Assembly: GCA_031409955.1 (NCBI GenBank)
Contig: JANNYF010000120.1
Coordinates: forward strand, 10,780 to 74,779
Length of the DNA stretch: 64,000 bases
From: Blastocatellia bacterium
GTDB taxonomy: Bacteria; Acidobacteriota; Blastocatellia; RBC074
Direction of reading: 5' to 3'
The position numbers and the translations under genes were made by a program. Under the pieces are notes generated by a model. That model did no database searches, was not told the origin of the DNA, and saw nothing but the letters and a program-made list of their open reading frames with translations. This document shows, piece by piece, positions 39,834 to 55,215 of this stretch (its first letter is position 1; each line of letters begins with the position of its first letter).

Positions 39834-39895
39834 TTTTCTTCCGGCTCAATGTGGCGGTTCTCGCTCCATTGGCACGATTAAGTAGAGAGAAAATT

Positions 39896-40426
39896 ATGAG
39901 GCACTCGATTCACAGTAAGTGTTCATGGCTCGCCTCATTCGCTTTGCTGGCGAGCTTCATCATCTCTTTCGCGCTGGTCATTCCGGCCCTCGCACAAACC
40001 GATAAACCGCACGAGTGGAAAAACAAGCTGACGGCTGAAGAGCGCACCACCTTCAGCAAACCCGACAGCCCAAATGATCGCATGAAAACCTTTGTGCGAT
40101 TGGCGGAGTCGCGGTTGAAATCGGCGCGGGATTATTTGGTCCGCGATGATTACACGGGCGCGGACGAACAGATTATGGGCTATGCGGCTTTGGTCGCAGA
40201 AGCTGGTCAGTTCTCGAAAATCTCCGTGCCAAAGCGTGACAAAGCGCACAAAACATTGGAAGTCTCGCTCCGCGAACAGACGCGCACGTTGGAAGGCATT
40301 CGGCGCGATACCTCTGTGAATTATGCCGAGACCATTGAAAAAGCGCTCAAGCTGGCTAATCAAGTGCGCCGCCAAGCCTTGAATTTATTGCTCGGCGAAG
40401 GGTTTCTTTCCGAAACGGACAAATAG
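39896..40426 (+). CDS. Exported helical hypothetical protein
   Basis: Signal peptide ending ALA-Q; similar to the next gene. Confidence 0.7.
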   Translation: MRHSIHSKCSWLASFALLASFIISFALVIPALAQTDKPHEWKNKLTAEERTTFSKPDSPNDRMKTFVRLAESRLKSARDYLVRDDYTGADEQIMGYAALVAEAGQFSKISVPKRDKAHKTLEVSLREQTRTLEGIRRDTSVNYAETIEKALKLANQVRRQALNLLLGEGFLSETDK

Positions 40427-40433
40427 TAACGAT

Positions 40434-40928
40434 ATGAACCCACGTTTTCTTATTTTTGCCGTTGTTCTCGCCTGCGTGTTTCTGATTGCACCTGTAACTA
40501 CTGCGCAAACACGCGATCACCTGACTGAAAAAGAAGTAGATTGGGTGCGCGAGGTTCAGGTCATTGACAAGCGCATCGAAGTGTTTGTCAAAGCGGCTGA
40601 CCGCCGTTTGTTGGTGCTGGTCAACCCTGACTCCAAGCAAACTAAAAAGGAAGAAGAAAAGTGGGGGCCGTTGCCGACTGGTACAAAAGCGGAGTTGCTG
40701 CAAGATTACAAACACATCCTCGAAGAAGCCGAAGAAAAGCTGGATGATGCGTTTGATCGCAAAGACGCATTGGTTCCCAAAGCACTCTCCAAGTTCAAAG
40801 AGGCCGCGCGCAAACAGCTTGAGCAATTGCGCTCACTCGAAACAAAAATGACCGAGACGCGCGAATTGAAAGCTTTATCCGAAGCCATTGAAGAAGCCGA
40901 AACCGTCACCAAAGGCGAAGTCAAATAA
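40434..40928 (+). CDS. Exported helical hypothetical protein
   Basis: Signal peptide; DHLTEKEVDWVRE...RIEVFVKAADRRL. Confidence 0.75.
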   Translation: MNPRFLIFAVVLACVFLIAPVTTAQTRDHLTEKEVDWVREVQVIDKRIEVFVKAADRRLLVLVNPDSKQTKKEEEKWGPLPTGTKAELLQDYKHILEEAEEKLDDAFDRKDALVPKALSKFKEAARKQLEQLRSLETKMTETRELKALSEAIEEAETVTKGEVK

Positions 40929-40936
40929 CCCATCTT

Positions 40937-40976
40937 AAAAAATCAGGCCGGAAGCAATGAACGCCTCCAGCCTTTT
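40937..40976. terminator. Possible bidirectional terminator between convergent genes
   Basis: A-tract, aggccggaagc...gcctccagcct imperfect stem, T-tract. Confidence 0.45.
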
Positions 40977-40998: not shown

Positions 40999-41937
40999 TT
41001 ATTTAGCGCTGAAGCTTCCCGTGAACGAGCCTTCCGTCGTGTTGTATTCAATCGTATTGTTTCCTCTGGTGCGCAGCGTCCCGGTTGCCCCGCTCAAGGC
41101 CAGCGTGTTTCCGGTGACGAGGCAATTTGAAACGCGCGTCTTCGCGGTGCTGGTGCTTTGAATCCCCGTGCCATTATGACTGGCAACGCAATTCTCCAGC
41201 AGCATTTCGGTCTCTGCGCCGGAATTCCCATTGGACGTAAACCCGATGGACGCGCATTGCAAAACAACCGTATTGCGAATGACCGCCAGCGTTTTGTTGC
41301 CGCTGTTATTGGCTGAAATTGAAATGCCGGTCGTGGCCATTTTCTCGACGCGGCAATTATTGATGAGGGCGAACGCGGTGGTAAAACTTGCGGTCGTGAC
41401 CGCTGCCACAATGCCGTTATTGCAATTCTGCACGGTCGTGTTGCTGATCGAATGTTTGCCCGCGTTACCCGAAAGCGAGATACCTGTCCCCGCAAAATTA
41501 CGAACGACGCAATTCTCAATTTGCACGCCGCCTGCCGCTGTGGACTGAATTCCAAAGCTCGCGGTGCTTTGTCCCTCCAACGTCAAGCCGCGCAAGATCA
41601 CAAAATCAGTAGTGGCGGCGGCGACTGTCAGGGCATTGCCAGAGGCTGTATTGATGACGGCTTTGACGCCTGGCGCAGCTTGAATCGTGATGGCTTTCAA
41701 AATGGAAGCCGAGGCAAATTCCCCGGAATCAATGATGGTGATGACGCCGCCCGCCTGTGTTTGCGTAAGCGCATACGTCAGGTTCCGACAGGGTGACGCC
41801 GACGTACATAGCCCGGCATCACTACCTGTTCCGGCAGAAAGATAGGTGGTGGCGGATTGCGCAGAAACTGTGAGAGAAAACCCCACAACCAGCAAGGCGA
41901 TGAATAAAATCTGTGCGATGAATTTTGAATGCAACAT
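40999..41937 (-). CDS. Secreted right-handed parallel beta-helix protein
   Basis: Signal peptide; C..ASPCR, IIDSGEF, repeated I.NC....N..GI. Confidence 0.82.
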   Translation of the reverse strand: MLHSKFIAQILFIALLVVGFSLTVSAQSATTYLSAGTGSDAGLCTSASPCRNLTYALTQTQAGGVITIIDSGEFASASILKAITIQAAPGVKAVINTASGNALTVAAATTDFVILRGLTLEGQSTASFGIQSTAAGGVQIENCVVRNFAGTGISLSGNAGKHSISNTTVQNCNNGIVAAVTTASFTTAFALINNCRVEKMATTGISISANNSGNKTLAVIRNTVVLQCASIGFTSNGNSGAETEMLLENCVASHNGTGIQSTSTAKTRVSNCLVTGNTLALSGATGTLRTRGNNTIEYNTTEGSFTGSFSAK

Positions 41938-41968
41938 GATGATTTCCTTTTTGATAATGGCTCGCAGT

Positions 41969-42910
41969 TTATTTGGCGACGTAAACTTCTGAGAATGTAC
42001 CGTTGGTCGTATTGCCTTCCAGCGTATTGTTCAAGCGGGAAAATATCTGACCAAGATTAGATATTTGCAGCCCCTGAGCATTTCCGACAATGGTTGAATT
42101 TGAAACGCGAATCACCGTTCCATCTCGTTCCGCGATAAGGCCAACCCCGTTGTCAAAAGAAACAGAATTCTCGACCACGCATTCGACGGTGGAATTGGTG
42201 ACATTCGCAATGGCGCGTAAACCAGCCCCAACGTTATGCGCCAGATTCGTATCTCGGAGCGTAAGTCGTAGGGCCGCATTCGCTGCGCCGCTGGCATTGA
42301 TTCCATTGAAATTGCTTTTTTCGATGAGGCTGCTTTCAATCGTTGCTGTCAGTAGCCCACTGGACGCGGGGGTCAAGACTATTCCCTGCGAATTATGGCG
42401 AACGGTGGTCTGCGAAATGGTCAGGTGTCCGCTGGCCTGCGCTTTGATGCCCTCACCCGAAAACCCTTCGATGATGCAATTGCTCAAGGAAACAACGGCA
42501 GCAGATTGATAGCTGACACCTCTCAGGTTCGTGCTTGTACTGCCTTTGATATGTAACCCTTGCAGAAACACTTTGCCCACACTGCCAGCGTTTACTGTAA
42601 TTACATTGGAAATCGCCGGATTCTTGAGCACCGCAGCGACGCCCGGCGCAGCTTCAATCGAAACGGATTTCGTGATCGTGATTTCGGCATAATCGCCCGA
42701 ATCAACAATGAGAATGCGCCCGCCCGCAGCAACGAGGGAATGTGCCGAAGCCAGGCTGCGACACGGCAGGGCGAGAGTACAGGGATTGCCGTCTACGCCG
42801 TTCTGCGCGGAAACAAAAGTTTGCGATGGTTGCGCAAAGGCCGCGCACGTCGTCAGGATTACTGCGACAACGGAGAGAATGATCTGAGTTACAGAACGTG
42901 GATTGTCCAT
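41969..42910 (-). CDS. Secreted right-handed parallel beta-helix protein (paralog)
   Basis: Signal peptide; TFVS...NPCTLALPCRS, IVDSGDY, AAPGV shared with 40999-41937. Confidence 0.82.
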   Translation of the reverse strand: MDNPRSVTQIILSVVAVILTTCAAFAQPSQTFVSAQNGVDGNPCTLALPCRSLASAHSLVAAGGRILIVDSGDYAEITITKSVSIEAAPGVAAVLKNPAISNVITVNAGSVGKVFLQGLHIKGSTSTNLRGVSYQSAAVVSLSNCIIEGFSGEGIKAQASGHLTISQTTVRHNSQGIVLTPASSGLLTATIESSLIEKSNFNGINASGAANAALRLTLRDTNLAHNVGAGLRAIANVTNSTVECVVENSVSFDNGVGLIAERDGTVIRVSNSTIVGNAQGLQISNLGQIFSRLNNTLEGNTTNGTFSEVYVAK

Positions 42911-42934
42911 TGGGTTTTCTTTCTCCTACAAAAG

Positions 42935-43195
42935 TTAGTTGCGGTGACATAGCGAATTGAGACAAATAAGGAGCAGCCCGTCGCGCTCCTCAATCACGTG
43001 AAGCCGATGCAATTGAATGAGCTGGTGCAAAGCAGTCATTGAGAGTTGCAGCAACAATGCCGCCTGAGGTGGTGTGACCGTTGGGAGGTGCGCCTGACAA
43101 CGATCACACCACATAACAAACGGGGCATTGCGCCGGCTGACAAGCACGACGCGTTCGGTTTCGATAATAATTTCAGTGCGTGTTCTTCGGCCCAT
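42935..43195 (-). CDS. Small CxxC + HTH-like (excisionase/MerR-like) protein
   Basis: WCDRC, TPPQAALLL, LH.IEE.DG.LLICLNSL; paralog of 43322-43594. Confidence 0.7.
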   Translation of the reverse strand: MGRRTRTEIIIETERVVLVSRRNAPFVMWCDRCQAHLPTVTPPQAALLLQLSMTALHQLIQLHRLHVIEERDGLLLICLNSLCHRN

Positions 43196-43224
43196 AACTT
43201 CAACCTCTTTCAGCTTCGAGGTGA

Positions 43225-43302
43225 ATGATAGGCGGGCAGAGGAAAAGAATCTTGAAGTTCGGCTGAGGTTTTCTTGAGATTATTTTGAGGTCGTTTTGAG
43301 GT
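43225..43302 (-). promoter_or_regulatory. Promoter with five 11-bp-period direct repeats (box A)
   Basis: TGAAG/TGAGG/TGAGA/TGAGG/TGAGG at 43253, 43264, 43275, 43286 and 43297; minus strand AAGATT-17 bp-TATCAT. Confidence 0.75.
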
Positions 43303-43321
43303 AACGACAGTTTGCGCAACC

Positions 43322-43594
43322 TTATTGGCTCTCGCTGGCTTGCCCATAAAGCGAGTTGCGGCAAATCAAGACGCGGCCATCTGGTTCTTCGATAAAATGC
43401 AAAAGCTGGGCTTCCACCCAGCGATAAACCACACGCGGTGTCACCTGAATCAGCACCGCTGCCTGTTCCGGTATCAACATTTCCACGCGCGCAGAACAGT
43501 TCAGACACCACAAGTGAACGGGCATTGTTTGTTGAGGGACAACAATGATTCGTTCGGTTTCGACAATAATTTCTGTCCTTCTCTTCGTCGCCAT
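43322..43594 (-). CDS. Small CxxC + HTH-like (excisionase/MerR-like) protein
   Basis: WCLNC, PEQAAVLIQVTPRVVYRWVE, LHFIEEPDGRVLICRNSL. Confidence 0.75.
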   Translation of the reverse strand: MATKRRTEIIVETERIIVVPQQTMPVHLWCLNCSARVEMLIPEQAAVLIQVTPRVVYRWVEAQLLHFIEEPDGRVLICRNSLYGQASESQ

Positions 43595-43687
43595 AAAAAC
43601 TACTTTACGAAAGGGGGCAAAGTTAGGGAGCCGGGGGATTTGGCTACGATAAAACCTGCTTCACAAAGAACAAGGGCAACGGGTTTG

Positions 43688-44956
43688 CTATTTGGTTTTT
43701 AGCAGCCGCAAATTGCGAAATCCGCTTTCGCTCAGGGCCTTTCCGCTTTGATCTTTGGCAATCACGCGCCAGCGAATAGTTTCCGCCTTATCCTTCAACC
43801 ACGACGGAGCGCGATACGATTTGATCCCACTCCGAAACCACGCGAACAAAAGGTTCTTGCCATTCGCATCCTGAATTTCCAACTCATAAAATGAAGCTTG
43901 CGCGACATCAGACCACGTGAAGTCAATCGGTCGCCGCGCGTCGAGCTGCACATTGTCGCGTGGCAATAACAGTTGCAAGGCAGCCGCCGTTGGATTCACG
44001 CCTTGCCCAATGCCGCCGATCACATAGCGCAACACTGGCAACGGAAAGCCTGCGACCGCGCCGCTATGAACGGTATCAGGACCAGCATTCACAGCGGTCA
44101 AATTGGAATCGCCTTCGCGGTCATCACTGGCTTCAATCCGCAATAAAATCAGGTACGTTCCTTCGACTTTGCGCGGCAACCGCGCGACCTCCGGGCCGGG
44201 CAAAATAACTTTGCCGACCGGCGGCAAGAACACATTGAAGCGGCTAAGTTGCGTGTAGCGTTTTTGCAATCCGCGCTCTTCAAACGGCAACGTCGCTTCG
44301 GTCAGCAAGTCGCGCTCATCGGGCAATTCTTCGCCAGGCAACACAATTTCCCAACGTCCTTTCAATCGGCCTGTGCCGTTGTACGTGATGTTGGCTTTGA
44401 GCGGCGGCAGCGGCTTGTCAGTTTCGGCAAACAGGATTTGCGATTCTTCTTTGCCAAACAACAGCTTTACGTCCGTCAGGGAAAACGGTACGCGCGCGCC
44501 GCCGCCTGACAAACGACACGTGACATCCACATATTGATCGGGGCCGCCCGTCGTGCTGACGAAGCGACGCACGTAAAAGAACCGCGCCTCTTCGCCGCGC
44601 GCCGCCGCCTGATACGCACGCCGCGCGACCGAAGCCGGAATGGACATCACATCGGTGTAGGCATTGTTGCCGCTGCGCTTGCTGCGATCATAGCGCGATG
44701 GCAGCAAGCCGTAGGTTGCCGCCGGATTGCACTTCAGGCCTTGATCGGGCGCAGCCGAAATCAAATCGCCACACCACGTCGCTTCCGCCGGGCTGTAATC
44801 GCGTAAATTGCCAAACGTCAAAAACACCGTCGTGGCACCTTGACTGTTAACGTTGACGCCTTTCGGATTGACAGCAATCGTCTGTGCGAAGCATTCCAGC
44901 CTCACGCCCAGAAACAGATAAACCAAAAACAAAATGATGACCGAGGTTCGATTCAC
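43688..44956 (-). CDS. Exported multi-beta-sandwich hypothetical protein, partner of the outer-membrane barrel
   Basis: GTG at 44956 with GGAAAGG RBS; signal peptide ending CFA-Q; C-terminal FN3-like FTWS....FYELEI...WRVIA. Confidence 0.7.
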   Translation of the reverse strand: MNRTSVIILFLVYLFLGVRLECFAQTIAVNPKGVNVNSQGATTVFLTFGNLRDYSPAEATWCGDLISAAPDQGLKCNPAATYGLLPSRYDRSKRSGNNAYTDVMSIPASVARRAYQAAARGEEARFFYVRRFVSTTGGPDQYVDVTCRLSGGGARVPFSLTDVKLLFGKEESQILFAETDKPLPPLKANITYNGTGRLKGRWEIVLPGEELPDERDLLTEATLPFEERGLQKRYTQLSRFNVFLPPVGKVILPGPEVARLPRKVEGTYLILLRIEASDDREGDSNLTAVNAGPDTVHSGAVAGFPLPVLRYVIGGIGQGVNPTAAALQLLLPRDNVQLDARRPIDFTWSDVAQASFYELEIQDANGKNLLFAWFRSGIKSYRAPSWLKDKAETIRWRVIAKDQSGKALSESGFRNLRLLKTK

Positions 44957-44973
44957 AGTAGTTACCTTTCCAA

Positions 44974-45069
44974 TGGGGAGGGCAGCGGAAGCGCGTGCCT
45001 GCTCTGACAAACTAAATTGCAGTGAAGTCGGTGCAAAAGCCATAGCACGCGCTTCCGCTGCCCTCTCCA
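44974..45069. repeat. REP-like long inverted repeat
   Basis: tggggagggcagcggaagcgcgtgc ... gcacgcgcttccgctgccctctcca (about 25-bp stem). Confidence 0.8.
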
Positions 45070-45071
45070 AA

Positions 45072-47231
45072 CTAAAAGAACGTAAAATTGATGCCCGCAT
45101 TCAACGTGTTACTTTTCGTCAAATTATTCGTATCAAAACTCCGATCAATCGTGCGCACGAAGAAGTTGGCATAACGAACAAAGAACTGTCCGCTGAACTT
45201 CTTGAATTGCTTCTGCCCAGCCAAAAACTTCCACGTCCACTGCGCATTGAATTCGTTCGTGAAGTTGTCGCTGATCTGCCCTAAATCAAACGCATTCAGC
45301 GTCGAAAGCGTTGCGCTCAACGCGGTGTTTTTCGTCACCTGCAAATTCGCATTGAAGCCGAAACGCCACGTCTGATCGCTGCGTTTGTTTTCGACATTGC
45401 GGGCGCGTTCGGAGTTCACGTCAAAGCTCAAATCCACCTTTTGATTCGGCGTGTAGCCAAAGGTGACGCCGTTGATTGTGTTGTATAAATCCGCGCTTTC
45501 GCGCCCGGTTTGCCGATTGTCCTGTGACGAACGATTGAAGCGATAGCCGGTGCGAAACTTCGTAAATTGCCATTCCGCCGTGAACGCCTGATTGATGCTC
45601 AACTGATTCGGCACCGTGCTGAGATCAAGGTCAAACCCGCCGTTCACCGGAATGGCTGCGCCGAATTGATGCACGCGGTCGTAGGTGAATCCCACACGCG
45701 GCAGCCAGGGCGAAGGCTTGTCGGCATTGCCGATGAACGCCTGCAACGGCGCATTGATCGCGGCGGCGCTGCGTCGTGTCAGGCTTTTCAAAATCGAAGG
45801 AATGTCCGCCAGATTGTCATTGAACCGCTGATGCGTCAGCGTGATATTCAACTGATCCAGATTGCCTGTCACGTCCCATTGATTATTAAAGCGATCCGCT
45901 TGCGTCGTGGCGGCAACGCTGCGAAACAATGGGTCTACGCGCTCGTGATGATACGCGGCGGTCAGCGTTGCTTTCTTCGATTTCGTGACCGTGATGTCTT
46001 TCAGAATATCGAAGCTGGCATCAATGAATTCGGCGTTGCGCGTAGTTTCCTGCACCTGCACGATGGGCCGACCTTGATTCAGCAGCGGGTCGGGCGGATT
46101 CGTGAAGCGGTTGCGTGTGAAGCCGCCATCGAATTTCGCGCGCTGCGATTTGTCGCTCGCAATCAGGCGAAAGCCGTAGCCCTGACTCTTTTCGGCGTCT
46201 GTGATTGCACTCTGATTGACGCCAGTTTGTGGCAGCAACGAGCCATCCATAAAACTCACCTCGGTGCGCAATCCGCCGGGACGTTCTTTCAGAAATTCGT
46301 GCCCCCACGATGCGCTGAACACTTGGTGATTGCGGTTGTTGAGGCCGAAGAAATTGCCGAAGCCGACAATGCTTGAGCCGTTCAAGGCCGCGACGGAAAA
46401 CTCATCCTGCTTGCCGACGGGAACGGTCAACGTCAGTCCACGCGAAGCAAAGCTGTTGATGAGATGGCGATTGCTGCCGAATGATGTGTGACCAGAAATG
46501 AACTTGCTGCGCCCCAGATTGAATTGCATCAGGTAATTCGCCAAATCTGTTCTCGGTGCGTCATTGCCCAACGTACCAAAGCGCAACGCTTCTTTGCGAA
46601 AGCTTGATCCCGCGATGTCGAATTGCATTTCGGAACTAAACTTGTCGCGCTTCATTTCGCCTTTCAAACTGGCTTGCAACGTCGTGTCCAAAAACTTCGG
46701 GCGTTCGGGTTTATTCGTATCTGGGAAATGCGTTTCTGCCGCTTGCGATTTGAAGCCCAGCGTTATCGAAGGCGTGAACTTCATCTTGCGCGTGACCACT
46801 GCTTCGGGCTGCGCAGTCGGATCCGTCGTAGCCGCAGCAACTGTCTGATTTGCCGCCGCCGCCACGCGCAATGAGAAATGCGCCAATGCTTTCCATTCGT
46901 CATTATTGGTCACGAGGTAAATCGTCACCTCGTTTTCGCCGACGGGCAGGGCGAATGGCGTGGGCAAATAGCTTACGCTGTCGGCCTTGCTCGTCAGCAA
47001 ATTCGTCACGTCGGTTGTTCCGATGACCACCGCGATTTTTTCGTCTTTGAGCGCGCGACTGAGCTTGAATTCCAACAACTCAGTCGGCGCTACTGATTCC
47101 TTCCCAGCAAAGCTTGGCGTGACGGTCAATGCGTCTTGCGCCAATAATGACAGGCTCAGCAGAGCCAGCCACAAGATGAACCAGGCTGCGGGCAGCATCA
47201 GCTTTTGTTCTGATTTCAGCCTGAAAGACAT
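45072..47231 (-). CDS. Putative outer-membrane beta-barrel protein with an N-terminal Ig-like domain
   Basis: Signal peptide; long run of alternating hydrophobic strands; terminal NAGINFTFF (BAM-type aromatic end). Confidence 0.72.
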   Translation of the reverse strand: MSFRLKSEQKLMLPAAWFILWLALLSLSLLAQDALTVTPSFAGKESVAPTELLEFKLSRALKDEKIAVVIGTTDVTNLLTSKADSVSYLPTPFALPVGENEVTIYLVTNNDEWKALAHFSLRVAAAANQTVAAATTDPTAQPEAVVTRKMKFTPSITLGFKSQAAETHFPDTNKPERPKFLDTTLQASLKGEMKRDKFSSEMQFDIAGSSFRKEALRFGTLGNDAPRTDLANYLMQFNLGRSKFISGHTSFGSNRHLINSFASRGLTLTVPVGKQDEFSVAALNGSSIVGFGNFFGLNNRNHQVFSASWGHEFLKERPGGLRTEVSFMDGSLLPQTGVNQSAITDAEKSQGYGFRLIASDKSQRAKFDGGFTRNRFTNPPDPLLNQGRPIVQVQETTRNAEFIDASFDILKDITVTKSKKATLTAAYHHERVDPLFRSVAATTQADRFNNQWDVTGNLDQLNITLTHQRFNDNLADIPSILKSLTRRSAAAINAPLQAFIGNADKPSPWLPRVGFTYDRVHQFGAAIPVNGGFDLDLSTVPNQLSINQAFTAEWQFTKFRTGYRFNRSSQDNRQTGRESADLYNTINGVTFGYTPNQKVDLSFDVNSERARNVENKRSDQTWRFGFNANLQVTKNTALSATLSTLNAFDLGQISDNFTNEFNAQWTWKFLAGQKQFKKFSGQFFVRYANFFVRTIDRSFDTNNLTKSNTLNAGINFTFF

Positions 47232-47255
47232 GGGGGTTTCTCCTGCTTTGAATAA

Positions 47256-48062
47256 TTAGGGATTGCCGCTCAAGGTGGTGGTAATCCGTTGTATGACCGT
47301 GAAAAAGGTTTCGACTTTGATGACCGCTTCGATGCGGACATCTGACAAACTGGCAACAGGCGAAGAACTCACGGTCAAGCGCGCCTGCCGGGTGCCGGAG
47401 CCAACGGTCGTCGTCGCCGTGCGCGTCCCTAACACTTGGGCGCCACGTTTATAGGTAAACGTGCCACTGACCTTGGATTGCTTTTCACTGACACTTGGCG
47501 CCAAACGAGCGCGCCAAAACACATCGAAACTCTTGAACCCGGAGCCATCTACAATCGTCACGTTCGTAACGGCATCGTTGGCGTTAGGAGTACTGCTCGG
47601 TCCTCCTGACGAGCCTTCCTGTTTGCCCAACGAAAACGTGCCGTTCAATTCACGCTTTTGCGTGGCAAGCGTGGTGAAAGACGTGACAATAGTCGTTTGG
47701 GCTACGACAAACTTGAGTCCATTGAGTGGCACCTGAAGCACGAGTTCACGGACGGAACCTGCGGCGGTTTGATTCGTAGTGGTGATCTTCCCCTCGGAAT
47801 CCCTCGTATTAAGGGAAATATCAAACCTCTCAAGCTTGGTGAGGTTAGGAACTTGCGCTGTCCATTTCACCCGCACCTGGTTGCCTTTACCCGGAATGGT
47901 TTTGGCTTCGGTAATTTGCACCGTGGGCGGCCCGGCTAAGTTCGGAATATCAATCGGATTGAGCGTCTTATCCGGCAGTTGCACCGGTTGCGCGACGGCA
48001 ACCAAGATCAGTCCCAGCAAGATTGTGGTGGCTGCGAGCCAGCTTCGTAATTGGTTAAGCAT
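47256..48062 (-). CDS. Secreted Thr/Ser/Val-rich two-domain beta protein
   Basis: Signal peptide then QPVQ; two V-x-W motifs; ends LSGNP. Confidence 0.7.
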   Translation of the reverse strand: MLNQLRSWLAATTILLGLILVAVAQPVQLPDKTLNPIDIPNLAGPPTVQITEAKTIPGKGNQVRVKWTAQVPNLTKLERFDISLNTRDSEGKITTTNQTAAGSVRELVLQVPLNGLKFVVAQTTIVTSFTTLATQKRELNGTFSLGKQEGSSGGPSSTPNANDAVTNVTIVDGSGFKSFDVFWRARLAPSVSEKQSKVSGTFTYKRGAQVLGTRTATTTVGSGTRQARLTVSSSPVASLSDVRIEAVIKVETFFTVIQRITTTLSGNP

Positions 48063-48074
48063 ACGTTCTCCTCA

Positions 48075-48953
48075 TTAAAAATTGCCGCTGACCTGCGCTT
48101 CCGCTGGTTGTCGGTTTGTCTGATCGCGTCGGCCTTTGATCGTGACGCTCGCTTGCATTTGCGTGAGCTTGCGTGGATCGTTGCGGAAGCGGCTGTCATC
48201 AATGTCAATTTCCACTTCCCGCAAGGCAACATTGCTCACCTGTTTTCCGCCACCTGCGCTAAATGTTTTGGGCGGATTCCCACCTGTAAAATTGAACCCA
48301 CCGGAAACACTAACCTGGAAGGAAACAAACGGGATGACTGGCGGCTTAACAAACCAGGTGACTTTGAAGCGGTTGGGATGCGTGGCTTGTTGCCCGGTTT
48401 TGATGATACCCGTGATTAAGATTTCTTGCGTATTCGACGACGCAGCGATGCCGGGCGCAGAGAAGTTGTTTTCCGGCGTCAGAATAAACTGTCGCTCCGT
48501 CGTAAACTCTTCCGCGTTGGCGAACTTGGGGTTGTAAAAAGCTCTGGCATTGGCCGAAAAACTTTTGAGCGGCACGGCGGGCAAAAGCTTGGCTGGCACC
48601 ACAACTTTTCCCTCACACGGAATCAATCCGCCCGACGGATTACTGCAGGTCGCCACCAGCACCTTGCTCGTCTTCGTAGACCCGTCAGCATAAGTCACGG
48701 TGAGGAACAAATCAGAAGTTCGCAACACGAGGAATTGCGGCACAAATACTTTCCACGTAGTTTTGATCTCAAACGAGGGCGACGCCCCGGGCTTAAAAGC
48801 AGGTGTGCCAACCACGATGTTTTCGACTCTTCCTTTGGCCCCAATTTGATCGCTGACATTGGGTACTTGCTGGACGGGCTGGGCGCTGGCAGTGATCGCC
48901 CAAGCCATCAGGATCACTGTCAGTTTCCATCCGCTTCGTCGTTTGTTGTACAT
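48075..48953 (-). CDS. Secreted two-domain beta protein
   Basis: Signal peptide then QPVQ; KTTWKV and KVTWFV; ends VSGNF. Confidence 0.7.
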   Translation of the reverse strand: MYNKRRSGWKLTVILMAWAITASAQPVQQVPNVSDQIGAKGRVENIVVGTPAFKPGASPSFEIKTTWKVFVPQFLVLRTSDLFLTVTYADGSTKTSKVLVATCSNPSGGLIPCEGKVVVPAKLLPAVPLKSFSANARAFYNPKFANAEEFTTERQFILTPENNFSAPGIAASSNTQEILITGIIKTGQQATHPNRFKVTWFVKPPVIPFVSFQVSVSGGFNFTGGNPPKTFSAGGGKQVSNVALREVEIDIDDSRFRNDPRKLTQMQASVTIKGRRDQTNRQPAEAQVSGNF

Positions 48954-48983
48954 AGTTTCTCCCGTGCAATGAATCAGAAACGC

Positions 48984-49466
48984 CTACTGTTTTTTGGTCA
49001 CGCCCGTGATGGCGACGCCGTCATCGGTTCCCGTGAAAAATGTTTCCTTGCCCTCATTCACGATGACAAAGCTGCCGTTGGTCGAAATCCCCAGCACGGG
49101 CAATTGCAGCGTCACAGTGCCGGTGCAATCGTCGTCAACCGTATACGTGCCAATGAAGCGGCCTTTGAACGGAATCCCGCCGAGATTCACGTTGTATGTC
49201 GCAAACAAGCTGCCACGCCCATCGAACGTGATTGGCCCGGCGGCAGTGATGGCTTTGCCCATCACTGTGCCGTGATACGAATAGCCATGCGTACCTTTCA
49301 TCGTGCGTGGTGAGCAAGGTCGGGCGTGATCGCGCTCAGAGTTTTGAGCCAAGCTCGATTGTTGTGCGTGCACGCGCGGTGCCTTGCTGAACGCGGCAAT
49401 GAAGGTCAGCATCAACAGACTGATGGTAGTGAATCCGACCGTGAGGGTTGTTGTTGTAGGTTTCAT
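48984..49466 (-). CDS. Secreted small beta-rich hypothetical protein
   Basis: AAGGAG RBS; signal peptide; CS..TMKGTHGY...TFDGRG...GTYTVDDDCTGT. Confidence 0.72.
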   Translation of the reverse strand: MKPTTTTLTVGFTTISLLMLTFIAAFSKAPRVHAQQSSLAQNSERDHARPCSPRTMKGTHGYSYHGTVMGKAITAAGPITFDGRGSLFATYNVNLGGIPFKGRFIGTYTVDDDCTGTVTLQLPVLGISTNGSFVIVNEGKETFFTGTDDGVAITGVTKKQ

Positions 49467-49538
49467 AAAGACTCCTTGAGTAAGATTTTTGTAACGCTGA
49501 TCGCCCACCCGAAAGCAGGCGGTCAGCGATTCTGCGGA

Positions 49539-50573
49539 TCACTTTTTATTGAATCCCACTTCAATGAAGACAGTGCTTGAAAGGATGAAACTGCATTGGG
49601 CCTGTCCATTGCAGGCGCTGGCATTGGGGTCATTGCCCGTAATGATGACCGATCTGACTGTGCTGCCAGCAGCGGGGGTAACTTGCAAAAATAACTTGGT
49701 GTCTCGCTTGAAAGTTCCTTTGGCAAACTGGCCGTTTTGTATGCCATCGGTCGTGATGGCTGGCCCTCCTTTGGGAGCGATAACAACCTTTCCGCTTCCC
49801 GGTCCCAACTTCTTCAGAGAAACATTGAACTCTGTCAGAGGCGGTGTTGGCTTGGGTGCAGGCGGCTTTTTGAAGACCGCTGACACTTCGGAGTTTGCGT
49901 TCAGGGTAAAAGCGCACGGGGCAGTTCCACCGCAAATCGAAGCCGCGCCAGACCCGTTGGAAAAGCTCTGAAAATTTTGCGTGCTGGCTTGAATCCTGAT
50001 TTGCGCCCCTTTTCTGAGGCGAAAATCACAACCGGAAAATGGATCGCGGTCATTGGGAATCGCGCATTTCACCTGTGAGATAATCGGGTCACCCGTCACT
50101 TGCACGTCTACGAAATCGCTGAAAGTGGGCTGAAGCATCTTCAGGTTAAATCGGAAGAACGGGTCTACGCCGGTACATTTCACCGCGAAGTCTGTCACTC
50201 TTTTTAAGGTCTGATTAGCAAATCCAGCGGTGATAAAGGCGGTTGCACTTACGGTTGTTGCTGTCTTCGGATTACAAGCAACATTGACTGTTTTCTGTTC
50301 ACCGGGATTCAGCGTTTGGTTGCTGCCTGGAATTGAAACATTGAAAGTGCCGGCGGGATTATTGGCAATGTTACCCCCGATTCTGATCTGTTGCTGGCTG
50401 GTATTTTTGACCGTTACGGGTACGGTCTTTCCCGCCTCAAATTCAACCGAGCCGAAATCCAATGAGGTCGGATTCACCGAAACAGTGGGGCTGCCTTGCG
50501 CGAAGGCCGCAGCCGTCAGCAGCAATAACCAAGCGGCGCTCAGACCAGCGATTTTCTTCAGTGTAGTGTTCAT
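49539..50573 (-). CDS. Secreted protein with an ASH/choice-of-anchor-D-like Ig domain and InlB B-repeat-like modules
   Basis: VNPTSLDFGSV...VTVKNT...LNPGE; C.G...C.F.L modules; AAGGAG RBS. Confidence 0.72.
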   Translation of the reverse strand: MNTTLKKIAGLSAAWLLLLTAAAFAQGSPTVSVNPTSLDFGSVEFEAGKTVPVTVKNTSQQQIRIGGNIANNPAGTFNVSIPGSNQTLNPGEQKTVNVACNPKTATTVSATAFITAGFANQTLKRVTDFAVKCTGVDPFFRFNLKMLQPTFSDFVDVQVTGDPIISQVKCAIPNDRDPFSGCDFRLRKGAQIRIQASTQNFQSFSNGSGAASICGGTAPCAFTLNANSEVSAVFKKPPAPKPTPPLTEFNVSLKKLGPGSGKVVIAPKGGPAITTDGIQNGQFAKGTFKRDTKLFLQVTPAAGSTVRSVIITGNDPNASACNGQAQCSFILSSTVFIEVGFNKK

Positions 50574-50604
50574 AGTGTTCTCCTTCTCTGTGGTTATATT
50601 CGGT

Positions 50605-50994
50605 TTAGAACGCATCCATCGTACAAAAATCATTGGGACTCTGACCGCAACCCCGGCAATCGCCGCGATTAGGCCCCAAGATGATGCCGCGACAATTGCC
50701 GCCAGAGCTGGAGCTATTGCCAGGACAGACGCCGCAGCCTAACCGCCCGACGAAGCGGCGCGTAGATTTCTCGCGCACCGCGAGCTTGCCGTCGGATTCT
50801 ACGATCAGTTCAAACTTGCCCGTGTCTTTCAGGCGAACACTGTTTTTCGCTGTTTTTTCCAGCACATCCCGGAGCTTCACGCTGGGAGGGCTATCTTTTT
50901 TGCTGGTCTTTTGTGTGAACGCGCCGACGAACGCGACCATCAGTACGGTGGTCAGAATGGAGAGCGCGAGTTTTTTCCAAGCTTGGTTCGACAT
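50605..50994 (-). CDS. Small secreted protein with a six-Cys C-terminal domain
   Basis: Signal peptide; CGVCPG...C...C..C...CTMDAF; AAGGAGG RBS. Confidence 0.72.
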   Translation of the reverse strand: MSNQAWKKLALSILTTVLMVAFVGAFTQKTSKKDSPPSVKLRDVLEKTAKNSVRLKDTGKFELIVESDGKLAVREKSTRRFVGRLGCGVCPGNSSSSGGNCRGIILGPNRGDCRGCGQSPNDFCTMDAF

Positions 50995-51024
50995 AAATGT
51001 TTCCTCCTTATTTGTGAGCAGTTC

Positions 51025-51396
51025 CTAAAATGGATCAATCAGACAGCCCGAACTGGTACAACTGTTACGTGGCACACAGGAGCCGCTGAGACGTGACCGA
51101 CAGGTTCCACCAGGGCAGGAACCGCATTTGACGCGGGCTTCCAACCGCCGTGTTTCTTTGCCTACGATCTGATCCACGACCCAACCTTCGTCAATCAACA
51201 CCAGTTTGAAGCCAGGTTTGGCGCGAATCTGGTTCGGGCCGACACGTTCGACTGCCTCTTTCAAGGTCACTTTCTTTTCGCTTTTTTTGCCCTGTGCCTG
51301 CGTGAAACTGCTGAGCGATAAGGCCACCATCAGTACGCCTGCAACACAAAGCAGCGAGGTTAACAATAGGTTCTTTTTCAGAGTTGTTCGTAACAT
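51025..51396 (-). CDS. Small secreted protein with a six-Cys C-terminal domain (paralog)
   Basis: Signal peptide; CGSCPG..C...C...C...CLIDPF. Confidence 0.72.
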   Translation of the reverse strand: MLRTTLKKNLLLTSLLCVAGVLMVALSLSSFTQAQGKKSEKKVTLKEAVERVGPNQIRAKPGFKLVLIDEGWVVDQIVGKETRRLEARVKCGSCPGGTCRSRLSGSCVPRNSCTSSGCLIDPF

Positions 51397-51439
51397 AACG
51401 TGACTTCCTTTCTAGCTTGAGGCCGGCTTGCGAAGAGGA

Positions 51440-52081
51440 TTACTTGGCGGCGATTTTGCCTTCAGCGCGGACGATGAAGATCAGTTCTTCGACGACTTTC
51501 TTTTTGTCCACGACCCGCTTATTGCCGGCGAATTGTTCTTCGTGATTGATGACGACAGGCTTGGAAAAGCCCACGACGGCGATGTCGCCTTGCTTATTCA
51601 CGATGCGGACGCGCTTGCCGCTGAGTGATTCGCCGTTCGGGACACTCACGGTTTCGGTCGTGAGCGAAAAATCCGCGATGACCGTTTTTCCGCCCACTGA
51701 GAGCTTGATCGGAACGGAGCTGAAGTCGAATTTCCCTGACGTCAAATCCGCCGTCAGCTTGCCTGCGCCTTGCAGCGCGGCGTTGAAGTTTTTGCCTTTC
51801 GCAGAAGTGCTGCTCCAAACGCGATTCGTCGTGAATTCCTTGCCACTGGCGGCGTCAATTAAGTTGCTTTCAAAACTCAACGGGCCTTCGGCTTTGTCAA
51901 TTTCCTGCCATTGTCCGTTGGGTAATTTCTTGCAGACTTTGATAGCGATCTTGCCGCTGAATTCGCGCTTCTTTGAGGCCGCGTGCAGCAGGAAGCCGCC
52001 CACGGCAATGAAAGCCGCGAGGGTTGTTATCACAGTGATACCGAGAATGCGAGATAGCTTGTTTTTTAGTTGCGGTTTCAT
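51440..52081 (-). CDS. Exported Lys-rich beta protein, first gene of the operon
   Basis: AAAAGGAGG RBS; hydrophobic N-terminal helix. Confidence 0.72.
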   Translation of the reverse strand: MKPQLKNKLSRILGITVITTLAAFIAVGGFLLHAASKKREFSGKIAIKVCKKLPNGQWQEIDKAEGPLSFESNLIDAASGKEFTTNRVWSSTSAKGKNFNAALQGAGKLTADLTSGKFDFSSVPIKLSVGGKTVIADFSLTTETVSVPNGESLSGKRVRIVNKQGDIAVVGFSKPVVINHEEQFAGNKRVVDKKKVVEELIFIVRAEGKIAAK

Positions 52082-52118
52082 GGTTGTTCCTCCTTTTGTT
52101 AACTAACTCATTTGGGTG

Positions 52119-52406
52119 GCATCCAGCTTCTTCAACTCACCACAGTGTTCTGCCCGAAGACTGCGTGTGACTGAAGAAGCTGGTGTCAGTCGCAGTCATC
52201 TTCATCGGCAGTGCTTGCTGATAGCTGCGACTTTTAGTAACGAGAGTCATTCGGGATAGGAGAGAGCGTCCCCGACGCCACAGACTCCCCCGAACCGGTG
52301 GCGTGTCGGACTCCCAACCATCCCGAATGATTCATCGCCCCATCCACTATCGAGCTGTTGGCAGCGGATGGTTACGCTCCTCCTGTCAAAGTACCTGTTC
52401 GGTACG
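52119..52406 (-). ncRNA. Candidate structured 5' leader (four or more consecutive hairpins)
   Basis: Stems 52123-52134/52172-52183, 52188-52195/52225-52232, 52244-52257/52320-52333 and 52340-52345/52366-52371. Confidence 0.5.
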
Positions 52407-52412
52407 CGCCAA

Positions 52413-52490
52413 ACATTACGTGGGTCAGGAACCAAAATCTTTAGGTTGGTTTGAGGTTTTCTTGAGATTTTTCTCTGCTCGTTTTGAAGC
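52413..52490 (-). promoter_or_regulatory. Promoter with 11-bp-period direct repeats (box B, homologous to box A)
   Basis: TTAGG/TGAGG/TGAGA/(mismatch)/TGAAG at 52441, 52452, 52463, 52474 and 52485; minus strand AAGATT-17 bp-TAATGT; 18 bp identical to box A. Confidence 0.75.
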
Positions 52491-52728
52491 CTGGAATATC
52501 GTTCAGTCCATTGGGCCTGTCGAATCTGCCAAGCCTGCCGAGTCTTTGAAATCTTTGGCTCTCCAAATTCGATGGATTTTAAAGATTCGATACGCTTTAT
52601 TTTTTAGATACTTGCCCCTCTTTCATAAAAAATTTAGAGGTCTTTTATGAATTCCATTCCCCAATCCGGTTATCATCCGATACGGACACCGCATCCCGAA
52701 ACTTGCAACGATTACACCCGGAGAAGTT

Positions 52729-54567
52729 ATGAATCATCATTCCCTTCCACTTTACGAATTTGGGACGTTTCGACTCAACCCGCTGGAACGAATGCTGACG
52801 CGCAACGGTCAGCCCATTCCGCTGGCGCATAAAGTTTTCGATACGCTGATTCTGCTGGTGCAAAACAGCGGTCATGTGATGGGCAAGGACAAGTTAATGG
52901 AGCTGATCTGGCCGGACAGCTTTGTCGAAGAAACCAACCTCGCGCAAAACATTTCGATTTTGCGCAAAGCGTTGAGCGAAGGAGTGGAAGGAACAAAATA
53001 TATCGAGACGGTTCCGAAGCTTGGCTATCGCTTCATCGTCCCGGTCAAGGAAGTTACCAATGAACCCGCCAGTCTCATCATCCGCGAACGGACGCGCGCC
53101 CGCATCATTGTCGAAGAAACCGACGACGAATTGGACGAGCCGCGTTTGGTGAATCCGCGCCACCCCATCATCGAATTGCCGCCGCACGCCGTGCAGGTTC
53201 TCGCGCCCGCGCCCACGCCGAGGCAATTGCCACCGATGCGGCGAATGTTGGAAACCCATTACGTGCAGAGCGGCGATGCCAACATCGCGTATCAAGTCGT
53301 CGGCAACGGCCCGATTGATCTGGTGTTTGTGATGGGCTGGGTTTCGCATTTGGATTATTTTTGGGAAGAGCCGTCGTTTGCCTACTTCCTGGATCGGCTG
53401 GCGTCATTCTCACGGCTGATCCTGTTCGACAAACGGGGGACGGGGCTATCGGATCGCGTGCCGCTCAATCAATTGCCGACGCTCGAACAACGGATGGAAG
53501 ACGTTCACGCGGTGCTGGACGCGGTTGGATCAGAACGTGCTGTGTTGTGCGGCGTTTCGGAAGGCGGGCCGATGTGCAGCTTGTTTGCCGCCACGTATCC
53601 CGAACGAACGTCGGCGCTGGTAATGATTGGGAGTTACGCGCGTCGCCTACGAGATGAAGATTATCCCTGGGGGCCGACCGTCGAACAGCGCGAGCATTTC
53701 TTCAAGGAAATCATCGAACATTGGGGCGGCCCGGTTGGCATCGAAGACCGCGCGCCAAGCCGGATGCACGACGAACGTTTCCGGCAATGGTGGTCCACGT
53801 ATTTGCGAATGGGGGCCAGCCCCGGCGCTGCGTTGGCGTTGACCAAGATGAATGCCGAAATTGATATTCGCCCGGTTTTGCCGAGCATCCGCGTCCCCAC
53901 GCTCGTGCTGCATCGCAAGGACGATATGTGCTTGCGCGTCGAAGAAGGGCGTTATGTTGCCAATGCTATTCCCGGCGCGAAATTCATCGAATTGCCCGGC
54001 ATAGACCATCTGCCGTTCGTCGGCGATCAGGATGCAATTCTGGATGAAATCGAAGAGTTCCTCACGGGCATGCGCCACGCCCCCGAACACGACCGCGTAC
54101 TGGCCACCGTATTATGCACGCGCCTAGTGAGCTGCCCCGAAGCCAACGAACGAGACGTGCGGTGGCAAGAGATGTTTGACCGCCATTACGCCTACGTGCG
54201 CAAAGAAGTTGAATTGTTTCGAGGCCGTGAAAGCGATCTGAATCAATGCGGCTTGATCGCCACCTTCGACGGCCCCGCGCGCGCAATTCGCTGTGCCGCA
54301 GCAATCAATAACTCCGCACGGCGGATGGGCATTCCGATTCAAACCGGCGTGCATACGGGCGAATGCGATTTGATCGGAGATGACAAAGTTAGCGGCATCG
54401 CCGTGGACATCAGTTCGCAAATTGCGCAACTGGCAGCGACGAACCAAGTGTTGATTTCTGGTACCGTGAAAGACTTAGTCGCCGGTTCGGGACTTCGGTT
54501 TTCCGATTACGGATTGCATCAGTTGGAAGGCGCAGAGCAAAACTGGCGACTGTACGCCGTAGATTGA
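52729..54567 (+). CDS. Transcriptional regulator: OmpR/CadC-type winged helix + alpha/beta hydrolase + class III cyclase-like domain
   Basis: YEFGTFRL...IWPDSFVEETNLAQNISILRKAL...IETVPKLGYRF; GVSEGG nucleophile elbow; ATFDGPARAIRCA...GVHTGEC (LipJ-like). Confidence 0.88.
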   Translation: MNHHSLPLYEFGTFRLNPLERMLTRNGQPIPLAHKVFDTLILLVQNSGHVMGKDKLMELIWPDSFVEETNLAQNISILRKALSEGVEGTKYIETVPKLGYRFIVPVKEVTNEPASLIIRERTRARIIVEETDDELDEPRLVNPRHPIIELPPHAVQVLAPAPTPRQLPPMRRMLETHYVQSGDANIAYQVVGNGPIDLVFVMGWVSHLDYFWEEPSFAYFLDRLASFSRLILFDKRGTGLSDRVPLNQLPTLEQRMEDVHAVLDAVGSERAVLCGVSEGGPMCSLFAATYPERTSALVMIGSYARRLRDEDYPWGPTVEQREHFFKEIIEHWGGPVGIEDRAPSRMHDERFRQWWSTYLRMGASPGAALALTKMNAEIDIRPVLPSIRVPTLVLHRKDDMCLRVEEGRYVANAIPGAKFIELPGIDHLPFVGDQDAILDEIEEFLTGMRHAPEHDRVLATVLCTRLVSCPEANERDVRWQEMFDRHYAYVRKEVELFRGRESDLNQCGLIATFDGPARAIRCAAAINNSARRMGIPIQTGVHTGECDLIGDDKVSGIAVDISSQIAQLAATNQVLISGTVKDLVAGSGLRFSDYGLHQLEGAEQNWRLYAVD

Positions 54568-54630: not shown

Positions 54631-55215
54631 ATGCAAACAACCCGAATCAGCTATGAGAAGTTTATTACGCAAACCAGTGATGGGGCGTGGGTTGAATGGA
54701 TTAAGGGGAAGATTCTCACTCTGACGCTTACCAATGATCATAGTGATATGATCGGTTTCCTCCTGCCGCTTCTTCGTACTTTTGTGGAAACATATCATCT
54801 GGGAAAAGTTTTCTCCCCGCCGTTCCAAATGAAAACCGGGCCGGAGCTTCCAGGCCGCGCCCCAGATGTTTTCTTTGTTACGCAAGCGAACCTCGATAAG
54901 CTCAAGAAGTTTTATTTCAACGGCCCGGCTGACCTCGTCATTGAAGTCATCAGTACGGAGAGCCGCTCGCGGGATCGCGGCGAAAAGTTTTATGAGTACG
55001 AAGAAGGCGGCGTGCGCGAATACTGGCTGATTGATCCGCAACGTAAGCAAGCCGAGTTTTATCAACGCGAAGACAGCGGTTTTTATCGTGCCATTCCAAC
55101 TGCAGACATCTATCACAGCCAAGTGCTGCCGGGTTTGTGGATTAGCGTGGATTGGCTTTGGCAGGAGCCGCTGCCGAAGCTATTGAGCGTACTCAAAGAG
55201 TGGAAGCTTATTTAG
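54631..55215 (+). CDS. Uma2 family (PD-(D/E)xK) putative endonuclease
   Basis: APDV, PADLVIEVIS, DRGEKFYEYEEGGVREYWLIDP. Confidence 0.88.
   Translation: MQTTRISYEKFITQTSDGAWVEWIKGKILTLTLTNDHSDMIGFLLPLLRTFVETYHLGKVFSPPFQMKTGPELPGRAPDVFFVTQANLDKLKKFYFNGPADLVIEVISTESRSRDRGEKFYEYEEGGVREYWLIDPQRKQAEFYQREDSGFYRAIPTADIYHSQVLPGLWISVDWLWQEPLPKLLSVLKEWKLI

Follow-up and report, generated by a model that had tools for sequence, protein, structure and literature searches.

The locus described here raises the question of what a large predicted outer-membrane β-barrel does together with the exported partner protein encoded directly behind it and the varied exported proteins encoded ahead of it. It lies at positions 40,999 to 54,567 of a 64,000-nucleotide stretch of DNA from a Blastocatellia bacterium of soil or sediment (assembly GCA_031409955.1, contig JANNYF010000120.1), which was analysed at full length and which we call the window; the window belongs to contig C120 of a 7.68-Mb genome that is 98.6% complete, and its closest protein matches are records labelled Blastocatellia or Acidobacteriota. 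The answer that we favour is that barrel and partner may together be an outer-membrane complex of two proteins, so far undescribed, by which the proteins co-encoded with it are exported or displayed. Taken as a whole this statement is tentative, and we put its chances slightly short of even, while the barrel-plug complex on its own is likely on the strength of structure models. The genomic rule from which the argument starts is clear, in that the pair is constant and its exported neighbours and regulators are variable.

The barrel and its partner

Both proteins were modelled with AlphaFold 2 (AF2). The barrel model, built on a 41-sequence alignment, reached a predicted local distance difference test score (pLDDT) of 77; in it a signal peptide and an immunoglobulin-like (Ig-like) domain (residues ~37-123) are joined through a disordered linker to a barrel of 26 strands (residues 149-718), and the chain ends in FTFF. 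The partner model (pLDDT 84) consists of four β-sandwich (Ig-like) domains behind a signal peptide, and the GTG start of its gene at 44956 is preceded by a ribosome-binding site of the GGAAAGG type. An initial annotation of this DNA, made from its letters alone, had read the two products as a 719-aa outer-membrane barrel and an exported multi-domain protein, and the models agree with it on both.

In relatives, DNA downstream of the barrel gene was available at 16 loci, and at all 16 the partner gene directly followed. When species-representative genomes were scanned, 270 partner-encoding stretches came up, the best 80 of which were kept, and clustering of open reading frames (ORFs) on 82 loci labelled a partner ORF in 70, of which the 54 with at least 2.4 kb of upstream DNA were eligible for the linkage count. 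The barrel lay directly upstream and co-oriented in 51 of these 54 loci, and in the remaining three it was present by tblastn, once with a frameshift. Conserved pairing with variable cargo, which the initial annotation had named as the pattern that would support its idea, is thus what the two linkage counts and the differing upstream exported genes display. Long 'partner' ORFs that had suggested natural barrel-partner fusions (L074, L080) proved to be ORF-calling artefacts, the two genes lying in different frames. Record titles of the kept loci name Blastocatellia, Pyrinomonadaceae, Vicinamibacteria, Thermoanaerobaculia, Chloracidobacterium, Gemmatimonadaceae and Longimicrobiales, although some labels, on a small number of third-party assemblies, are clearly odd, and the pair spans two phyla, Acidobacteriota and Gemmatimonadota. 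Its distribution is patchy: the barrel occurs in 11 of 13 genomes of the same genus and 18 of 41 relatives (a count that takes in the unpublished genome G015), and of 301 genomes sampled evenly across the phylum only 12 encode the partner (a count that takes in the unpublished genome G064). Several genomes hold two to three copies of the module with different neighbours, and the source genome itself holds a second pair (C12:10205-13695). In paralogous loci the partner is more conserved than the barrel, at 54-58% versus 40-51% identity.

A complex folded from the barrel domain (residues 148-719) and the mature partner (residues 27-422) gave interface scores (ipSAE) of 0.84, 0.86 and 0.84 in three runs, compared with 0.00 for the best of three controls. 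Of 80 solved complexes 58 attain the ipSAE mark applied, as do 2 of 110 mismatched pairs, counts that are only rough because our own alignments were used. The three runs shared at least 85% of their contacts, with a partner pLDDT of at least 77, and the predicted interface comprised 359-417 contacts. On the barrel side it is formed by alternate residues along most strands (e.g. 680, 682 ... 719) and by the long loops 334-347, 378-396, 434-446, 472-487 and 528-541; in standard outer-membrane topology such long barrel loops lie outside the cell. On the partner side only residues 35-319 take part, and none of them belongs to domain 4. Barrel positions with a conservation of 90% or more are over-represented at the interface (64/146, odds ratio 3.6, p 1e-9). 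In the model, partner domains 1-3 fill the barrel lumen, and from the contact list we infer an orientation that would set domain 1 beneath the extracellular loops and leave domain 4 on the periplasmic side. The prediction is thus of a separately encoded lumen protein in a barrel of ~26 strands, an architecture of the LptD-LptE type. The initial annotation had drawn an analogy with systems that use a periplasmic helper, a role that the complex model does not bear out for the partner, placing the partner as a lumen plug and not as a free protein like PapD or CsgE. Some of the model's confidence could reflect likeness to solved plug-in-barrel complexes such as LptDE and MtrAB.

Neither protein matches a family in Pfam, NCBIfam or PADLOC, and profile searches of PDB sequences with each gave 0 matches at E <= 1. 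Foldseek against the PDB returned only generic large barrels for the barrel (LptD, MtrB, SlpA, FimD and AlgE, template-modelling (TM) scores 0.16-0.37) and only generic tandem-Ig proteins for the partner (TM <= 0.26). Among the matches listed, 120 relatives of either protein carried no precomputed Pfam domain, and the names given by the sources were 'hypothetical protein' with one exception, an 856-aa barrel relative that bears the Joint Genome Institute (JGI) label 'chemotaxis protein histidine kinase CheA'. A Pfam scan of 24 of the 150 listed, more distant barrel-family representatives produced two sub-threshold matches only, among them ShlB on one distant family member (E 0.006, below its cut-off). 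The ESM Atlas held only unnamed clusters for the barrel (0.98). The families themselves are large, with 927 clusters at 50% identity found by the barrel profile and 3295 proteins at E <= 0.001 found by the partner search. Full-text literature searches, judged on titles and abstract openings and with supplements outside their scope, yielded no published description of the pair. No described system matches the cluster in Pfam, NCBIfam, PADLOC, PDB sequences or Foldseek, which leaves standing the initial annotation's suggestion that the system is undescribed.

Exported neighbours of the pair

Within the genus the flanks of the locus are syntenic, and the exported set encoded between regulator and barrel differs from genome to genome. 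The families found at this level are the sp213-like, six-cysteine, sp268-like, sp174-like, ig364-like and nine-cysteine proteins. The most widespread accessory family is that of sp213 (cluster c5, 12 members at 10 loci), for which the ESM Atlas gave nothing above 0.77 and no informative match; that of sp268 (c8) has 8 members at 7 loci, sp174 has orthologues in L002, L008, L009 and L025, and an hth2 orthologue (c10) stands just after the partner gene in 7 loci of the genus. At distant loci other families occupy the upstream positions, most of them without a Pfam match; some of these neighbours carry CARDB or CarboxypepD_reg Ig-like domains, and some loci encode a pilin-like N_methyl protein. 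Co-oriented genes lie within 400 nt upstream at 41 of 52 loci. Among upstream ORFs that are non-regulatory and 100 aa or longer, 94 of 107 had signal-like N-termini as judged by a crude heuristic, compared with 292 of 646 other ORFs from the same loci.

Small proteins with cysteine-rich C-termini recur at 15 of the 52 loci. The family in the window has six invariant cysteines in 10 sequences, in the pattern C-x2-C-P-G-G-x-C ... C ... C ... C-x3-PF, and none of the 27 relatives found for cys123 bears a functional name. The putative client families are mostly unrelated to each other, cross-family hhalign comparisons being mostly negative except for sp268/sp292, c17/c46 and c23/c40, and their C-termini are family-specific (e.g. 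...C-x3-PF or ...G-x-F), none being universal.

Two further observations concern gene neighbourhoods at other loci. At the second pair of the source genome (L011, C12:7400-19400), the genes ahead of the pair encode three small exported proteins rich in Cys and a protein of the prepilin type (N_methyl) that has an EF-hand. Behind the pair come a gene of the sigma-70/ECF-like kind (ECF, extracytoplasmic function), a 357-aa gene and a TPR-CHAT protein, and a second TPR-CHAT gene lies upstream. Duplicated MacB/FtsX-type permease genes occur near the pair in L038, L041, L101 and L110 and may be chance neighbours.

Layout and control of the locus

Between 40999 and 52081, thirteen co-oriented ORFs follow one another on the minus strand (Table 1). 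The features that the initial annotation had described are present where it had placed them, with four corrections. It had counted twelve minus-strand genes, one too few, and eight signal-peptide proteins besides barrel and partner, of which there are nine; by reading of the translated N-termini, a signal sequence (basic-hydrophobic, mostly ending A/T-Q) is found in 11 of the 13 ORFs, and only the small CxxC proteins hth1 and hth2 are without one. The three paralogous pairs that it had counted hold, two of them by BLAST (bh1/bh2, 35% identity, E 3e-37; cys129/cys123, 35% identity, E 1e-12) and sp268/sp292 by profile comparison only (hhalign 97%, E 1e-10; BLASTP not significant, E 0.47). Its two small CxxC helix-turn-helix (HTH) proteins are likewise present, 43% identical by BLAST, with a weak HTH_17 match on hth2 and no family match in Pfam or NCBIfam for hth1. 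The Ig domain of ig364 was assigned from HYDIN_VesB_CFA65-like_Ig in Pfam (26.3 bits versus a cut-off of 25.5), a PapD-like match at E 6e-5 and NCBIfam choice_anch_D (E 7e-8, below cut-off). PADLOC gave nothing useful on the cluster proteins, and Pfam and NCBIfam scans concurred with the initial annotation that no cluster ORF matches an ATPase, ABC transporter, prepilin peptidase or component of a type 1 to type 9 secretion system (T1SS-T9SS).

Table 1. Features of the cluster and its control elements (positions in the window)
Feature	Position	Strand	Remarks
Terminator-like hairpin	40945..40973	-	Just past last gene; 12-pair stem, 7 GC, T-run GATTTTTTAA; consensus match only
bh1, exported right-handed beta-helix, 312 aa	40999..41937	-	Pfam Beta_helix E 1e-11; signal peptide
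bh2, exported right-handed beta-helix, 313 aa	41969..42910	-	Pfam Beta_helix E 3e-10
hth1, small CxxC protein, 86 aa, presumed HTH	42935..43195	-	No signal peptide; likeness to hth2
Repeat box 2, five tandem 11-bp CYTCAAR units	43247..43301	-	Upstream of hth1-bh2-bh1
hth2, small CxxC-HTH, 90 aa	43322..43594	-	Pfam HTH_17 E 5.5e-4, below cut-off
Partner, exported, 422 aa, four Ig-like domains	43688..44956	-	GTG start; AF2 model
Long near-perfect hairpin, barrel/partner spacer	44974..45069	-	25-nt arms, 96% complementary
Barrel, 719 aa, predicted outer-membrane protein	45072..47231	-	Signal peptide, Ig-like domain and 26-strand beta-barrel (AF2)
sp268, exported	47256..48062	-	Family recurs upstream of barrels; cluster c8
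sp292, exported	48075..48953	-	Remote paralogue of sp268
sp174, exported	48984..49508	-	Likely true start an internal Met at ~49466
ig364, exported, ASH / choice-of-anchor-D type Ig domain	49539..50633	-	Likely true start ~50573
cys129, small exported	50605..50994	-	C-terminal six-cysteine module
cys123, small exported	51025..51396	-	C-terminal six-cysteine module, ends DPF
sp213, first gene of operon	51440..52081	-	N-terminal hydrophobic anchor or signal; cluster c5
Structured 5' leader	52082..52434	-	Conserved core 52117-52375
Repeat box 1, five tandem 11-bp units	52435..52489	-	Upstream of main operon
Divergent regulator, winged helix + alpha/beta hydrolase + cyclase-like, LipJ-like	52729..54567	+	Pfam, NCBIfam

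The regulator had been annotated as a winged-helix hydrolase protein, and both of these domains were found (Trans_reg_C at residues 27-102, E 1e-15, 57.9 bits versus a cut-off of 26.2; Pfam alpha/beta hydrolase, E 6e-16), although the description was incomplete. Residues 172-611 align to positions 6-449 of the 449-position model for LipJ, a bifunctional lipase/adenylate cyclase (NF058673), at E 7e-116, and because this alignment runs end to end the regulator also has a cyclase-like C-terminal domain; Pfam Guanylate_cyc gave no match at E <= 0.01. By sequence the protein is LipJ-like in architecture and is not an equivalog, its 387.5 bits standing against a cut-off of 800. Orthologues with 79-87% identity occur in L032-L035. 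The regulators vary by locus, from the winged helix with a LipJ-like module seen in the window to a winged helix with TPR or a PD40 propeller, and further loci hold a set of a sigma-70/ECF-like gene, a 300-440-aa protein and a TPR-CHAT protein.

The two homologous repeat boxes and the long structured leader of the initial annotation are both real by computation. The boxes form a 52-nt direct repeat, 81% identical between 43248-43299 (upstream of hth1) and 52436-52487 (upstream of sp213), and a three-unit degenerate pattern of the box occurs at these two sites only in the 7.68-Mb genome, with 0 occurrences in a reversed-sequence control. Across 6 orthologous intergenic regions, whose spacers have otherwise diverged, the core of the box does not vary, and the exact core occurs once per orthologous locus that takes in the operon start. 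This arrangement fits tandem binding by the divergent winged-helix protein, and the domain make-up of the regulator hints at ligand-responsive control. Behind box 2 the beta-helix genes and the second CxxC-HTH gene would make up a transcription unit of their own; of the orthologous loci compared only the window and one close relative (L031) have it, and it is therefore an add-on and not part of the core. A box-like motif of two 11-bp units also lies at C19:24480-24990 (-), ahead of three exported proteins, one of 151 aa whose C-terminus is rich in Cys and two that are larger; the 8 kb inspected there contain no barrel. Elsewhere in the genome (C246:2200-9000 and C358:38300-41300) CxxC-HTH genes stand divergent beside winged-helix-TPR or winged-helix-propeller regulators, small exported proteins come next at C246, where no barrel is near, and the pairing of CxxC-HTH with winged helix looks like a reusable regulatory cassette.

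The leader (52082-52440) folds with a minimum free energy of -149.9 kcal/mol, a stability that none of 100 shuffles matched (z = -6.3), and in 5 orthologues it retains 92 consensus pairs, with double changes at 32. In 41 related genomes the covariance model R1 recovered no locus beyond the five on which it was trained, and a widespread RNA motif was thereby rejected; the leader is a multi-stem, single-copy RNA seen at this locus alone, in five genomes that belong to one genus. The hairpin in the spacer between barrel and partner (dG -66.9 kcal/mol, z -7.7) is unique in the genome, which ruled out a repeated element, and equally stable hairpins of unrelated sequence occupy the same spacer in L031, L033, L036-L039 and L032/L034/L035, with none in L025 or L041. 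Such hairpins may tune the product ratio of the pair or mark an RNA processing site. Rfam 15 gave nothing on the leader and only sub-threshold microRNA-model matches on the hairpin palindrome.

Beside the cluster, the plus strand at 38340-40928 encodes a 497-aa TPR protein together with two small proteins that have signal-like N-termini and match nothing in Pfam; these genes are syntenic beside the cluster within the genus, do not stand beside the pair in other lineages, and are probably not part of the cluster. Between the regulator and the syntenic flank lie a gene for a Uma2-family putative restriction endonuclease (54631-55215, +) and a 329-aa ORF, an insertion not seen in the orthologous loci compared.

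Proposed function and likeness to known systems

The constant pair, its accessory multi-copy spread, its tight operon with changing exported proteins and its dedicated regulators point most simply to a Sec-dependent device for export or display. We propose that the partner would be exported by Sec and that the barrel would fold around its first three Ig-like domains, leaving the Ig-like domain of the barrel in the periplasm and domain 4 of the partner hanging into it. The products of the upstream genes, namely the six-cysteine mini-proteins, the beta-rich proteins of the sp268/sp292/sp213 type and the Ig-domain protein, would be the clients, taken up by the complex from the periplasm and translocated or anchored at the cell surface. 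Expression would be switched on when the divergent winged-helix regulator binds both 5 x 11-bp boxes, that of the main operon and that of the hth1/beta-helix unit, and the structured leader and intercistronic hairpin may add further control. A more specific version, in which the pair is the core of a new Sec-dependent type of secretion or display, the Ig plug serves as gate or carrier and each copy serves small, hypervariable clients of its own under its own sensor regulator, is possible with the balance somewhat against it. If it held, the clients might often be six- to nine-cysteine proteins, e.g. bacteriocin-like, signalling or adhesive, a suggestion about which we are similarly doubtful. 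The interpretation given in the initial annotation, a self-contained module exporting or polymerising subunits, thus stands as to the linkage and the lack of a described match; it needs changing as to a free periplasmic helper and as to the bh/hth1 unit, which is an add-on.

Several observations weigh against a role in export. With three Ig domains under the loops the modelled lumen looks closed, and passage of a folded or disulfide-bonded client through a lumen plugged in this way would be hard to explain. The cluster encodes no energy source and no periplasmic chaperone, and no signal motif common to the client families was seen in their C-termini or by cross-family hhalign. There are 11 of 52 loci without a co-oriented upstream gene within 400 nt, and 12 of 82 loci had no labelled partner ORF in the clustering and stand outside the linkage count. 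In the same genome, C246 and C19 carry similar small secreted proteins beside winged-helix/CxxC-HTH regulators with no barrel nearby, and such proteins are therefore not always in need of a neighbouring barrel. As for the complex, it is a model prediction, which would support binding; conserved partner residues are not enriched at its interface (odds ratio 1.15, p 0.31), and the enrichment on the barrel side could partly reflect a general conservation of lumen-facing residues.

The closed appearance of the predicted complex and the loci without adjacent upstream genes would be accommodated by an envelope-remodelling or stress module, in which the pair is a structural or permeability element and its exported neighbours are co-regulated with it and not transported. 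Many loci adjoin sigma-70/ECF-like genes and TPR-CHAT proteins, or else one-component winged-helix regulators, which is wiring typical of envelope responses. We nevertheless regard such a module as unlikely, since the upstream neighbours are strongly enriched for exported proteins, the operon is tightly packed (spacers of 12-45 nt in the window), and a patchy distribution, often in two or three copies with different neighbours, is more in keeping with an accessory cargo system than with a housekeeping part of the envelope.

Transport could also run inward. In TonB-dependent transducer and polysaccharide-utilisation loci, variable binding proteins and sigma/anti-sigma neighbours accompany a large barrel with a plug, and the plugged barrel, variable exported proteins and sigma-like neighbours described here recall them. 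The pair would then be a gated import channel or receptor and the secreted proteins returning scavengers, as in hemophore/receptor or SusCD loci; the six invariant cysteines with their CxxCPGG motif could bind metal, and the folds of the beta-helix proteins are like those active on glycans. Of the compared loci, however, only 2 have the beta-helix genes, most loci have no transporters or catabolic enzymes, and Pfam and NCBIfam gave no match to a TonB-dependent receptor, plug or SusD in the cluster, so that we hold uptake or sensing to be quite unlikely.

Ig-like folds in the partner and in the N-terminal domain of the barrel, the PapD-like/ASH Ig domain of ig364, the paralogous beta-rich exported proteins sp268 and sp292, and FimD among the Foldseek matches (TM 0.27) recall instead fibre assembly of the chaperone-usher kind, with the partner as Ig-fold chaperone and the barrel as usher that polymerises beta-rich subunits. 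This is improbable given that Usher (PF00577) has no match in the genome and neither Usher nor PapD_N/C has one on the cluster proteins, that the 26-strand barrel model has, unlike an usher, no inserted plug domain or C-terminal domains, that the partner is predicted inside the lumen and not free, and that the putative clients are mostly unrelated, many of them Cys-rich mini-proteins and not pilin-like. That unrelated hypothetical genes stand together by chance and form no system would suit the fact that no protein of the cluster has a known function, but it is hardly credible beside an adjacency of barrel and partner kept across two phyla, a strong complex prediction and two shared repeat boxes unique in the genome.

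Export or display by a plugged barrel is the reading that we prefer. Acidobacteriota and Gemmatimonadota are among the most abundant bacteria of soil and sediment, and little is known of how they place proteins on or beyond the outer membrane. The pair is a large family pair that no source names, and it carries a testable prediction, Ig-domain plugs inside a 26-strand barrel. If it is a translocon, it would provide a new secretion route together with a catalogue of clients; if it is not, it would be a third example, after LptDE and MtrAB, of a barrel built round a partner and would bear on how the β-barrel assembly machinery (BAM) assembles plugged barrels. The locus also offers for study a compact regulatory set in which 11-bp boxes and a leader RNA that covaries stand beside a one-component regulator of the winged-helix/LipJ-like kind.

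Among known architectures, LptE is a separately encoded partner seated as a plug in the lumen of LptD, and MtrB is a 26-strand barrel that sheathes the elongated MtrA spanning it, with MtrC docked outside. No sequence similarity to LptDE or MtrAB was detected in the PDB profile searches. The LptD barrel has 26 strands, according to passages of a paper (PMC11494523) that deal with the multi-barrel protein GfcD, unrelated to the pair. The cluster barrel has the same number, and LptDE chains are its top Foldseek matches (E 2e-6), but with TM scores of only 0.22-0.29 and no Pfam LptD/OstA match. The plug of the cluster differs in being three Ig-like domains of a soluble Sec protein and not a lipoprotein, and the pair differs in being accessory, patchy, often multi-copy and set in operons with exported proteins. 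An LptD paralogue was considered and rejected; there is no LptD (PF04453)/OstA match and the genome has its own LptD at contig C56, and the cluster barrel is therefore not the cell's LptD. MtrB (6r2q_B) had the highest TM among the top-ranked Foldseek matches (0.34/0.37), and the trimeric SlpA chain 8ae1_A (TMq 0.36) stood lower in the list. Unlike MtrA, the partner has no CxxCH haem motif, and no cytochrome or MtrB family match was found in the cluster.

With chaperone-usher, curli (CsgEFG) and Fap systems the cluster shares Sec-exported subunits, a dedicated barrel, a helper and the lack of an ATPase; it differs from them in containing no member family, in the size and architecture of its barrel, in a helper that is predicted to be embedded and in heterogeneous putative clients. 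Pfam found no POTRA, ShlB-type or two-partner secretion (TPS) match on the window proteins that would indicate a type 5 secretion system (T5SS), autotransporter or Omp85 protein, and no secretin, GspE-type ATPase, prepilin peptidase, SprA/PorV, CsgG or FapF was found on the 13 genes or the regulator, a pilin-like N_methyl gene being present only in some paralogous loci, e.g. L011. In its control the locus resembles those at which winged-helix activators of the OmpR/PhoB/CadC type act on direct repeats in tandem, having Trans_reg_C and, ahead of each of its two units, five direct repeats whose period of 11 bp is close to one turn of the helix; its regulator, in contrast, has no receiver domain and is fused to a LipJ-like hydrolase and cyclase-like module. 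As no membership was found for LptD, Usher/PapD, MtrB, T5SS, TonB/SusCD or the type 2, 4 and 9 systems, and the literature searches gave no description, we class the pair as a plug-and-barrel outer-membrane complex, whose architecture is most like that of LptDE or MtrAB and whose genomic logic is like that of chaperone-usher, curli or Fap systems.

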